Positions 1,742 through 5,160 of a stretch of DNA of 5,160 bases are shown here, piece by piece. Numbering within the stretch: the first letter of the stretch is position 1; each line of letters starts with the position of its first letter. Below the pieces are notes generated by a model. The model saw only the letters and a program-made list of their open reading frames with translations, had not been told where the DNA came from and did not search any database. This DNA is from a virus (lineage: Duplodnaviria; Heunggongvirae; Uroviricota; Caudoviricetes). Where the stretch lies: the IMG/VR virus record IMGVR_UViG_2778261570_000022. One strand, 5' to 3'. The position numbers were made by a program, and so were the translations under genes.

Positions 1742-1945
1742 ATGAGCAGCTTATTTTTAACCGAAGATGAATTGCTAATATTAACGGGCTGCAAATATGC
1801 AAGCCACCAGCGAAAATGGTTAATGGAAAACGGGCTTCCGTTCTATACCAATCGTAGTGGCAAACCGATTGTCAGCCGGGATCTATTTACCTGCAATAAA
1901 ACTTTACCACCACGCGAGGTAGAGCCGAATTTTGGTGCGATCTGA
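1742..1945 (+). CDS. xis: Excisionase / recombination directionality factor candidate (DUF4224-like small DNA-binding protein)
   Basis: 67-aa ORF directly upstream of int, overlapping its start by 1 nt (TGATG at 1943-1947). The pattern LTEDELLILTGCKYASHQRKWLMENGLPFYTNRSGKPIVSRDLF matches the LTxxEL-LTG-W-G-PF-GRP-V signature I recall for int-adjacent DUF4224 proteins. Weak SD (GAGA) 7 nt upstream. Confidence 0.65.
   Translation: MSSLFLTEDELLILTGCKYASHQRKWLMENGLPFYTNRSGKPIVSRDLFTCNKTLPPREVEPNFGAI
1869..1897 (+). promoter_or_regulatory. Possible internal sigma70-like promoter for int within xis (analogous in position to lambda pI)
   Basis: TTGTCA (1869-1874), 17-bp spacer, TGCAAT (1892-1897), about 45 nt upstream of the int ATG. 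Motif match only; the -10 is weak. Confidence 0.2.
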
Positions 1946-3027
1946 TGGGAAGACGAAGGAAAAATCCTGAACACGAAAAATTACCTCCAAATGTATACCC
2001 AAATAAATATAGTTATGTATGGAAACCAACATCCAGAGAATCTGTCACACTAACCGCCATCAAGGATGGTTTAGCTGCTTTATGGAAAAAGTATGAGGAA
2101 ACTGTAAATAATCGCGATCGTGCAATGACATTCGGTCGCTTGTGGGAAAAATTCCTCGCCAGCGCCTATTACAGTGACCTTAGTCCAAGAACACAAAAAG
2201 ATTATCTGCAACATCAAAAAAAGTTGCTTGCCGTATTCGGTAAGGTACCAGCGGATTCCATAAAACCAGAACACATCCGTCGATACATGGACAAAAGAGG
2301 GGAGCAGAGTAAAACGCAAGCCAACCATGAAAAAAGCAGTATGTCCCGTGTTTACAGTTGGGGGTATGAGCGAGGGTACGTCAAGGCTAACCCATGTGCA
2401 GGTGTAAGTAAATTCAAGGCCAAAAACCGCGAACGATATGTAACCGACAAAGAATACCAGGCAGTATTAAGCGTTGCACCTCTTCCTGTTTTTATCGCAA
2501 TGGAAATGGCCTATCTGTGTGCAGCGAGGGTTTCCGATGTGTTATCGCTGAAATGGGAACAGATTGGAAACGACGGGATATTCATCCAGCAAGGGAAAAC
2601 CGGAAAAAAACAGATAAAAGCATGGAGTCCACGATTACAGGCAGCGATCGAAAAAGCAAAACAGTTACCAAAATCTGCCTATGTGATCAGCAATCAATAC
2701 GGCAACCGATATATGTACAAAGGCTTTAACGAAATGTGGGTAGAAGCAAGAAATCGTGCTGGAAAAATTTCAGGTATTTTAACCGACTTCACCTTTCATG
2801 ATCTGAAGGCGAAAGGAATTTCAGACTATGAAGGAAGCAGCCGGGATAAGCAACTTTTCTCTGGTCACAAAACCGAAGGGCAAGTGCTAATCTATGACAG
2901 GAAGGTTAAAGTTTCACCAACACTTGATGTCCCGTTACCTGAAAATATTCCAAGAAAATATTCCAAGAAAATATTCCAAGTAATTCCAAGTGTGATTTTT
3001 GTCACTGACTTAATGATGTGTAAGTGA
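1945..3027 (+). CDS. int: Lambda-family tyrosine recombinase (phage integrase) with N-terminal arm-binding domain
   Basis: 360 aa beginning MGRRRKNPEHEKLPPNVY (lambda Int begins MGRRR..LPPNLY). Catalytic-core equivalents are recognisable: AARVSD (Arg-I), QQGKTGKK (Lys), FTFHDLK (His-II, with Lys at the Arg-II position), SGHK (His-III), LIYDRK (Tyr nucleophile). Transcribed towards the tRNA; stop TGA at 3025-3027. Confidence 0.92.
   Translation: MGRRRKNPEHEKLPPNVYPNKYSYVWKPTSRESVTLTAIKDGLAALWKKYEETVNNRDRAMTFGRLWEKFLASAYYSDLSPRTQKDYLQHQKKLLAVFGKVPADSIKPEHIRRYMDKRGEQSKTQANHEKSSMSRVYSWGYERGYVKANPCAGVSKFKAKNRERYVTDKEYQAVLSVAPLPVFIAMEMAYLCAARVSDVLSLKWEQIGNDGIFIQQGKTGKKQIKAWSPRLQAAIEKAKQLPKSAYVISNQYGNRYMYKGFNEMWVEARNRAGKISGILTDFTFHDLKAKGISDYEGSSRDKQLFSGHKTEGQVLIYDRKVKVSPTLDVPLPENIPRKYSKKIFQVIPSVIFVTDLMMCK
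2942..2990 (+). repeat. Three perfect tandem copies of 13-bp AAAATATTCCAAG plus a degenerate fourth (TAATTCCAAG); putative arm-type Int-binding sites of the att arm, embedded in the 3' end of int
   Basis: Read directly: copies at 2942-2954, 2955-2967, 2968-2980, partial at 2981-2990. They lie 46-94 bp from the tRNA 3' end where the att core is expected, and the integrase has a lambda-like arm-binding N-terminus. Confidence 0.55.
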
Positions 3028-3035
3028 TTGAATTT

Positions 3036-3125
3036 TGGCGGAGAGAGGGGGATTTGAACCCCCGGTGGAGTTGCCCCCACTCCGGTTTTCGAGACCGGTC
3101 CGTTCAGCCGCTCCGGCATCTCTCC
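3036..3125 (-). tRNA. serU: tRNA-Ser (anticodon CGA), 90 nt with long variable arm and encoded CCA
   Basis: The reverse complement of 3036-3125 reads GGAGAGATGCCGGAGCGGCTGAACGGACCGGTCTCGAAAACCGGAGTGGGGGCAACTCCACCGGGGGTTCAAATCCCCCTCTCTCCGCCA. It has a 7-bp acceptor stem, anticodon loop CUCGAAA, T-loop GGTTCAAATCC and a 3' CCA. Naming it serU rests on the anticodon and the adjacent mtfA. Confidence 0.93.
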
Positions 3126-3218
3126 GTTCAGATGGTTGCCATGATGCCAGGAAATTTGGCATTTTAACAGTCCCTGTCCGTGCAATTTTGTTCAAGTGAC
3201 GAGTTTGCGAGCAAAACG

Positions 3219-4016
3219 ATGATTAAGTGGCCCTGGAAAGTACAAGAATCAGCACATCAAACTGCCCTTCCCTGGCAGGAAGCACTATCGATCCCCCTTT
3301 TAACGTGTCTGACGGAACAGGAACAAAGCAAATTAGTCACTCTTGCCGAACGTTTTTTACAGCAAAAGCGGCTTGTTCCTTTACAGGGCTTTGAACTGGA
3401 TTCATTAAGAAGCTGCCGGATAGCACTTCTATTTTGCCTACCCGTTCTGGAGTTAGGACTGGAATGGCTGGATGGTTTTCATGAAGTCTTAATTTATCCT
3501 GCGCCATTTGTGGTCGATGATGAATGGGAAGACGATATCGGTCTGGTGCATAACCAACGTATTGTTCAGTCAGGTCAGAGCTGGCAGCAAGGGCCTATCG
3601 TTTTGAACTGGTTGGATATACAAGATTCTTTTGATGCTTCTGGTTTTAACCTGATTATTCATGAAGTCGCTCATAAGCTGGACACCCGTAACGGCGATCG
3701 CGCCAGCGGAGTTCCCTTTATTCCGTTGCGTGAGGTTGCTGGCTGGGAACACGATCTTCATGCTGCAATGAACAACATTCAGGAAGAAATCGAATTGGTT
3801 GGCGAGAATGCGGCGAGCATTGATGCTTATGCTGCCAGTGATCCTGCTGAATGTTTTGCCGTACTTTCTGAATATTTCTTTAGCGCCCCAGAACTTTTTG
3901 CTCCTCGTTTCCCTTCATTGTGGCAACGTTTCTGCCAATTTTATCAACAAGATCCTTTGCAGAGACTGCATCGCACTAATGATACAGACTCGTTTTCGGC
4001 GACGAATGTTCATTAA
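3219..4016 (+). CDS. mtfA: MtfA (Mlc titration factor A), zinc-dependent peptidase with HEXXH motif
   Basis: 265 aa starting [23 protein letters not shown], with HEVAH zinc-binding motif; matches my recollection of E. coli MtfA/YeeI. The ORF track opens at ATG 3180 (13 extra codons); I take the internal ATG at 3219 as the start, from recollection that E. coli MtfA begins MIKWPWK and is 265 aa. Confidence 0.9.

Positions 4017-4478: not shown

Positions 4479-5160
<682 letters not shown>

Follow-up and report, generated by a model that had tools for sequence, protein, structure and literature searches.

We examined a 5,160-nucleotide stretch of viral DNA (IMG/VR record IMGVR_UViG_2778261570_000022; Duplodnaviria, Heunggongvirae, Uroviricota, Caudoviricetes), here called the window, which is the integrase-proximal end of a lambdoid prophage within the serU gene of Escherichia coli. 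The subject of this analysis is a 13-bp tandem repeat at the end of the prophage integrase gene (int), beside the tRNA gene that contains the attachment (att) site. The int gene (1945..3027, plus strand) is an open reading frame (ORF) for a lambda-type tyrosine integrase (Int) in a 360-amino-acid (aa) allele, with Pfam matches to Phage_integrase and to the SAM-like and central domains. Directly 5' of int, and overlapping its start, the ORF list holds a 67-aa frame (1742..1945, plus strand) that matches Pfam DUF4224 (E=1.9e-15); its product is a candidate excisionase, or directionality factor, because the ORF at the equivalent position in phage ST64B is annotated as an excisionase. Beyond int, serU, a tRNA-Ser(CGA) gene predicted by ARAGORN, occupies 3036..3125 on the minus strand.

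A first-pass annotation of this DNA had reported three perfect copies and a degenerate fourth, 46-94 bp from the tRNA, and had interpreted them as arm-type sites for Int that are also translated as its C-terminal tail. The array itself was confirmed. Tandem Repeats Finder detects a period of 13 bp with 3.1 copies at 100% matches (score 80) at 2941-2980, and a pattern search of the window finds exact AAAATATTCCAAG three times, at 2942-2954, 2955-2967 and 2968-2980. A copy with three mismatches, AAGTAATTCCAAG, lies at 2978-2990 and shares 3 nt with the third perfect copy; the degenerate unit is therefore really TAATTCCAAG at 2981-2990, and its heptamer TTCCAAG comes 10 bp after the preceding TTCCAAG. 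Elsewhere in the window, matches to AAAATATTCCAAG are limited to two with three mismatches, which is chance level. All repeat copies are inside the int ORF and, because ARAGORN places the 3' CCA end of the tRNA at 3036, they are 46-94 bp from the serU tRNA 3' end.

Positions in the att site are given relative to 3090, the centre of the anticodon loop, which is taken as position 0. Copy 1 (2942..2954) is exact and carries the 9-mer TATTCCAAG at 2946-2954, equivalent to -144..-136. Putative arm-type sites follow in copy 2 (2955..2967) at -131..-123, in copy 3 (2968..2980) at -118..-110, and in the degenerate copy (2981..2990) at -108..-100; all four copies are on the plus strand, and the latter three would be the equivalents of P'3, P'2 and P'1 of phage lambda, respectively. 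The position of copy 2 is that of the outermost of three tandem sites in the phages ST64B, KpF5, Chris1, BUCT708 and Evi and in relatives from GTDB. A site at -144 is present in none of the related attPs, and copy 1 is missing from most E. coli relatives; judged from these comparisons, copy 1 is a supernumerary putative site derived from a 13-bp tandem duplication, although which of the three identical copies counts as new is arbitrary.

A sequence resembling a site for integration host factor (IHF), ATTCAATCACTTA (3021..3033, minus strand), separates the arm sites from the tRNA and has one mismatch to the consensus WATCAANNNNTTR; its location is that of H' in lambda. By consensus match only, an IHF-like site at the same offset (-69..-57) occurs in ST64B, KpF5 and Chris1, and Evi has the exact consensus. 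The interval 2991-3020, between the arm sites and the IHF-like site, contains a short inverted repeat around GTGATTTT(N)GTCAC, and ST64B has a longer inverted repeat, ACGTGATTTTC...GAAAATCACGT, at 2558-2591 of its sequence (L090). The excisionase or another accessory protein may bind the inverted repeat in the window.

The protein encoded by int resembles lambda Int over most of its length. A phmmer search of PDB matched residues 1-313 to lambda Int 1-338 (1z1b, E=8e-13), just short of lambda Tyr342; the alignment starts at residue 1 and takes in the arm-binding domain at the N-terminus (MGRRR..LPPN). The assignment of the N-domain comes from this alignment, as Int gave no score with any Pfam model for arm binding. 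The catalytic Tyr317 (codon 2893..2895, plus strand) is invariant in the block YDRKxKxSPTL of a nine-sequence family alignment and corresponds to lambda Tyr342, in the block after GHK. Residues R195, K218, H285, H308 and Y317 match lambda R212, K235, H308, H333 and Y342.

The crossover and the partner arm

The two prophage junctions have in common a 62-bp identity segment (3036..3097) that begins at the 3' end of the tRNA and takes in the anticodon loop. The far prophage end of a near-identical genome, NZ_CP039403.1, carries a 62-bp copy of the 3' part of serU, and blastn aligned window 3036-3097 with 11507-11568 of that sequence (L004) at 96.8% identity over 62 bp. The two differences in this block form a compensatory pair in the variable-arm stem of the tRNA (G/C vs A/T), the window having GGTGGAG...CCCCCAC (3061-3085) where the far junction (11532-11556) has GGTAGAG...CCCCTAC. 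The latter is the native serU version, being that of prophage-free genomes as well; therefore, the 3' part of the tRNA gene in the window is phage-supplied and serU is rebuilt by integration. Lysogens therefore express a slightly altered, still paired tRNA-Ser(CGA).

As both phage/host differences are to the left of 3080 and identity ends at 3097 in the anticodon stem, the exchange is placed between ~3080 and 3097. This bracketing by polymorphism points to the anticodon stem-loop CCGGT-TTTCGAG-ACCGG (3082..3098) as the core. Within it, the 7-nt loop TTTCGAG (3087-3093) is a candidate for the strand-exchange overlap, with the exact cleavage positions likewise deduced, and the stem halves CCGGT and ACCGG would act as inverted core-type sites.

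The first-pass annotation had pointed to the other junction as the place where the same 13-mer should recur, and it does so. The far end of the prophage in NZ_CP039403.1 (2767560-2767700) contains the exact 13-mer in inverted orientation (L004 11604-11616), with its 9-mer at +47..+55, and an exact 11-mer of the repeat in direct orientation (L004 11670-11680), with its 9-mer at +111..+119. In the 61.9 kb that comprise this prophage in full and its flanks, there are five occurrences of TATTCCAAG, three near int and two at the far junction, and none elsewhere; ATTCCAAG occurs six times, all within the two att arms. When four diverged versions of the far arm were compared, conserved islands were limited to the core, the inverted and direct sites and two matches to the IHF consensus. 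Similarity is lost immediately beyond +119, and the limit of the functional site is placed there. The exact IHF consensus is found at +25 and +80 in the far arm, compared with once in 49.9 kb of prophage (consensus matching only).

These observations bear on whether the repeat has a function at all. The third perfect copy is a recent duplication, as would be expected if the array were a chance or purely mutational product with no binding function, but the other sites are conserved in position across differing motifs, are matched in the partner arm and are absent from the rest of the prophage, and we put the probability of such an origin close to nil.

Probable arm sites in related phages, compared with lambda

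A tblastn search of phage genomes provided five relatives with an intact attP: ST64B, KpF5, Chris1, BUCT708 and Evi, the Int proteins of which are 54-61% identical to that of the window. All five have three tandem direct sites at ~-131, -118 and -108 from the anticodon-loop centre. The far-arm pair, inverted at ~+47 and direct at ~+111, is detected in full in ST64B and KpF5, while Chris1, BUCT708 and Evi each show one of the two. The five site positions are shared by the window, which has the extra one at -144 as well. The target tRNA is serU in ST64B, KpF5 and Chris1, and the site positions hold despite the different tRNA-derived core in BUCT708 and Evi. A scan of GTDB genomes showed that the triple array recurs in many Enterobacterales, in Aeromonas and in others.

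The sequence of the motif varies while its position does not. The arm motifs are TTTTCTCA in ST64B and KpF5, TATACCAAG in Chris1 and Evi, TATTCTAAG in BUCT708 and TATTCCAAG in the window, and each phage uses its own motif in both of its arms; four motif classes are thus represented among the window and the five phages, with further classes in the GTDB relatives. The first-pass annotation had suggested a comparison with related attPs for the same 13-mer; the sites correspond in position, with a different motif in each class. The ST64B group shares with the window the Int family, an anticodon-loop crossover in a tRNA gene and the site positions, and differs in the arm motifs, in an int that ends before the sites (ST64B, KpF5), and in the inverted attP of Evi. 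In Evi (L091, 2540-2800), attP is inverted relative to int, with the triple-site arm distal to the gene and the tRNA-derived core oriented oppositely to that of the other phages; the int gene and the att site have therefore behaved as separate modules in rearrangements within this family.

The covariation of motif and protein indicates which protein reads the sites. Direct repeats set close together in a single att arm are the usual targets of directionality factors, lambda Xis among them. An array serving as sites for the DUF4224 protein (1742-1945), on the model of lambda X1-X1.5-X2, would fit both this habit and the location of the DUF4224 ORF just upstream of int. However, the other arm has the motif too, in one inverted and one direct copy, which is the five-site pattern of lambda Int and not a one-arm cluster. 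In addition, Int N-terminal sequence classes match the motif classes exactly, and two loci separate the candidate proteins: L104 has a window-like Xis and L106 a BUCT708-like Xis, yet they have in common the TATACCAA motif and the type of Int N-domain. Because the motif tracks the Int N-domain and not the Xis type, and because Int aligns to lambda Int over its full length, we conclude that Int, not the excisionase, is the predicted reader of the motif, and we consider excisionase sites quite unlikely.

The order of sites is that of lambda attP, in which the lambda sequence itself shows a direct P1 and an inverted P2, followed by the core, the direct P'1-P'3 and the 3' end of int. Both the lambda and the serU phage arrangements can be written P1-H1-P2-H2-core-H'-P'1P'2P'3-int, the serU IHF-consensus sites falling at H1, H2 and H', and both integrases are heterobivalent tyrosine recombinases that are homologous from residue 1. 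The two systems differ in several respects. The arm motifs are unrelated (WATTCCAAG in serU phages, CAGTCACTAT in lambda), and the serU core is the anticodon stem-loop of a tRNA gene, whereas the lambda core is intergenic. The serU pattern is shifted ~50 bp toward int, with the triple array at 100-131 bp compared with 54-84 bp in lambda and the inverted site at 47-55 bp compared with ~102-111 bp; this shift probably arises because a 45-nt tRNA 3' segment sits between the crossover and the arm. Unlike in lambda, the interval from the inverted site to the core is too short for Xis sites at serU. The third P' match of lambda overlaps the int stop codon, whereas the serU array reaches 9 codons (common allele) or 28 codons (window) inside int.

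Taken together, the copies in the partner arm, the conservation of position, the covariation of motif and the lambda-like order support the earlier assignment of arm-type Int sites. We consider it highly probable that the repeats are tandem arm-type sites, equivalent to P'1-P'3 plus one extra, in the int-proximal att arm of a lambdoid serU prophage. If the system works as in lambda, every Int protomer would bind one WATTCCAAG arm site through its N-terminal domain and the core at the anticodon stem-loop through its C-terminal domains, and IHF would bend the arms so that Int could bridge arm and core sites; Int and IHF binding, like the exact cleavage points, are here predicted from that analogy. 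The intasome would comprise three tandem sites in the int-side arm and one inverted and one direct site in the other arm. As the crossover and the int-side arm would be separated by ~45 nt of the tRNA 3' part that the phage must carry, the array would come to lie 100-131 bp from the crossover and run into the end of int. The codons of the array would be overprinted, non-conserved sequence, and in the window a 13-bp slippage duplication would have added a fourth site to the int-side array and shifted the int frame, with the extra site and the longer tail presumably neutral or mildly harmful.

Several observations weigh against this interpretation. A strict scan detected no inverted +47 site in Chris1 or Evi and no +111 site in BUCT708; weaker matches to the missed far-arm sites are visible by eye in Chris1 and BUCT708. 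The 13/13/10-bp spacing of the array does not correspond to a simple helical repeat. At the position of lambda Arg311 (HxxR), Int has Lys288 (codon 2806-2808, FHDLKAKG), which is invariant in 9/9 family members including ST64B; the family seems to run on R-K-H-K-H-Y, and the mechanistic transfer from lambda is thus not guaranteed in every detail. Finally, our search of the literature on serU, the ST64B attP and arm-type integrase sites found no published arm-site mapping for this family. ST64B excises in vivo, although the responsible protein is not resolved in that work (PMC12455584). The same 2025 ST64B paper was considered as evidence of in vitro activity for the family and was set aside, as the enzyme in its recombination assay is IntA, another integrase, encoded in the chromosome and ~50% identical to the ST64B int product (PMC12455584).

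The att site described here is ordinary lambda-style biology and a well-resolved new example of the lambda-type att class, not a new mechanism. It provides a sequence-level map of a lambda-style att site with five predicted arm sites, three IHF-like sites and an anticodon-loop core. The residual novelty is small and consists of a polymorphism that alters site number and protein tail together.

The integrase tail and its copy-number alleles

The tail of the window Int comprises 43 residues from Tyr317 to the C-terminus (YDRK...ENIPRKYSKKIFQVIPSVIFVTDLMMCK), and the last 28 codons of int and its stop cross the array, reaching 8 bp from the tRNA. The proposal that the repeats are translated as a tail of about 43 residues is therefore correct for the window, but among its relatives the common allele has a tail of 24 residues and three copies are the minority form. 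In the majority allele, with two perfect copies, Int has 341 aa ending ...ENIPRKYSK and stops at a TAA inside the degenerate copy; this TAA (2981-2983) is out of frame in the window. An allele with one perfect copy encodes 344 aa (...ENIPSNSKCDFCH), and the three-copy allele of the window encodes 360 aa (...ENIPRKYSKKIFQVIPSVIFVTDLMMCK). A 13-bp duplication shifts the frame, and Int, no longer stopping at the usual TAA, becomes 19 residues longer (360 instead of 341 aa); by this comparison of alleles, the 43-residue tail is a rare frameshift allele.

The distribution of these alleles was examined with an 80-base query across the array, which matches 1152 E. coli genomes; the match is end-to-end at 100% in 26 of the 60 listed records, and the remaining listed matches span 67 bases, equivalent to two copies. 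Among those listed, O157:H7 strains account for most three-copy matches and other lineages for a few; EC4115 and TW14359 are examples of three-copy O157:H7 lysogens. The O157-type int lineage, ~92-93% identical to the window, includes forms with one, two and three copies, and the three-copy form is also present in the window's own lineage; the presence of all three states within the O157-type lineage indicates that the unit was gained or lost more than once. Two loci of the GTDB scan (L099, L100) considered as three-copy forms on the basis of tblastn matches spanning 1-360 were rejected, direct translation giving two copies and 341 aa.

An alignment of Int homologues, which the first-pass annotation had suggested as a means to judge the tail, shows it to be variable. 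In the nine sequences, family conservation ends at YDRKxKxSPTL(D/N), 11 residues past the catalytic Tyr, and the length of the tail varies from 13 to 43 residues. The int stop falls between -195 and -66 relative to the crossover. It precedes the array in ST64B, KpF5 and most tRNA-Leu integrators, the ST64B and KpF5 ORFs stopping ~35 bp ahead of the first site; it is inside the array in the window family, Chris1 and BUCT708; and it is beyond the array in three Aeromonadaceae loci, with tails of 38-42 residues that run DIP...DIP through GGATATTC repeats. The latter are the tRNA-Leu(TAA) integrases of Aeromonas popoffii (L131), Pseudaeromonas paramecii (L147) and a metagenome-assembled genome from Aeromonadaceae (L151), which read through all three arm sites, and on sequence grounds they are an independent case of overlap between a predicted array and int.

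Given the variable stop position and the end of homology shortly after the Tyr, the array-encoded residues appear overprinted and dispensable and the coding overlap incidental. This favours the suggestion, made with the first-pass annotation, that the tail is an evolutionary by-product of the att arm. It had also been proposed that homologues terminating before the repeats would speak against Int sites; such homologues exist (ST64B, KpF5), and in Evi the triple arm is across the core, but these cases show only that the overlap is dispensable and do not argue against the sites. The family thus illustrates, in nature, how the 3' end of a coding sequence can drift into and out of a predicted protein-binding array.

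Recombination-site DNA that doubles as coding sequence is known elsewhere, as att is inside int in the Myxococcus phage Mx8 (intP) and in the archaeal virus SSV1, where crossover alters or splits the protein. The serU phages resemble Mx8 and SSV1 in that recombination-site DNA doubles as integrase coding sequence and differ in that only the arm sites overlap; because the crossover is ~60 bp (window) to 107 bp (common allele) past the stop, Int is unchanged by integration.

The physical overlap of putative binding sites with int could also mean that Int, bound to the 3' coding end of its own gene, autoregulates int as an intragenic operator, for example through a roadblock or the fate of the mRNA 3' end, as the first-pass annotation had suggested. 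There is precedent in the IntS-TorI system of KplE1/HK620, a tRNA-inserted prophage in which arm-type Int sites also overlap the integrase gene region and att-bound IntS exerts negative autoregulation (PMC2951348). In KplE1/HK620, however, the overlap is with the int promoter, and no autoregulation is predicted where that promoter lies outside the recombination region (PMC2951348); at serU the overlap is with the 3' coding end, and no regulatory effect is expected. A promoter and terminator scan of 2700-3250 on both strands predicted no promoter-like or terminator-like site, the overlap is confined to the last int codons and involves no promoter, and int converges on the tRNA. Nor is the overlap conserved, as ST64B, KpF5 and many GTDB relatives have an ORF that stops short of the sites and the triple arm of Evi is across the core from int. 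The suggestion of autoregulation thus found no support, and we regard an intragenic operator as most unlikely. Readings of the region as an int terminator, a tRNA terminator or an internal promoter were dropped following the same empty scan.

The copy-number polymorphism raises a different possibility, namely that the array is an adaptive slippage switch in which gain or loss of 13 bp toggles the tail (341/344/360 aa) together with the number of arm sites and so tunes or locks excision. All three copy numbers are found, all three frames are open for just 9-28 more codons, and changes have occurred more than once (one, two and three copies in the O157-type lineage; three in the window lineage). 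The C-terminal tail of lambda Int is known to modulate catalysis, which lends the proposal some plausibility. Against this, an array of only 2-3 units is expected to slip slowly, the alleles look clonal, with the three-copy form mainly in one O157:H7 strain group, and the tail sequences are not conserved. As an explanation of the array, an adaptive switch is very unlikely. That slippage might nevertheless act as a heritable two-in-one change of arm-site number and Int tail, altering the efficiency of excision or integration, is also unlikely, though we allow it a slim chance; such a switch could help to immobilise or mobilise the effector-carrying serU prophage, for instance in three-copy O157:H7 strains.

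The polymorphism also touches gene annotation, as NCBI PGAP flags some two-copy int genes (L006, L009) as 'frameshifted' pseudogenes. For L006, the flag looks like an effect of the 13-bp copy-number polymorphism relative to the chosen reference protein, and L009 may carry an additional upstream change. Such calls would be explained at least partly (L006) by the array polymorphism and not by decay of the catalytic protein.

Prophage setting and distribution

The integrase family is very common, being present in about one fifth of complete E. coli genomes (the window-type int region was found in 1156 of 5426) as well as in ST64B-like phages. Strain 382634_2f has a near-identical copy, in which the prophage is ~48 kb long, extends from serU to the zinT side and has the type III effector genes nleB2, nleC, nleH and nleF; this is the one prophage examined in full.

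Upstream of the DUF4224 ORF, the window contains an exonuclease gene (94-1683) with a Pfam Rv2179c-like domain. Inside this ORF, at 755-824, is an imperfect tandem repeat of 21 bp in 3.3 copies (70% matches) that keeps the frame and encodes a Gln/Asn/Glu-rich linker. Downstream of the tRNA-Ser gene, the window annotation lists mtfA, a tRNA-Asn gene and the beginning of yeeJ. Homology to yeeJ ends at ~5105, and the final 55 bases (5105-5160) match a multi-copy sequence found at up to 26 places per genome in our search and in plasmids too, one of the listed matches lying at a hok/gef gene. A mobile or repeated element has probably disrupted yeeJ.

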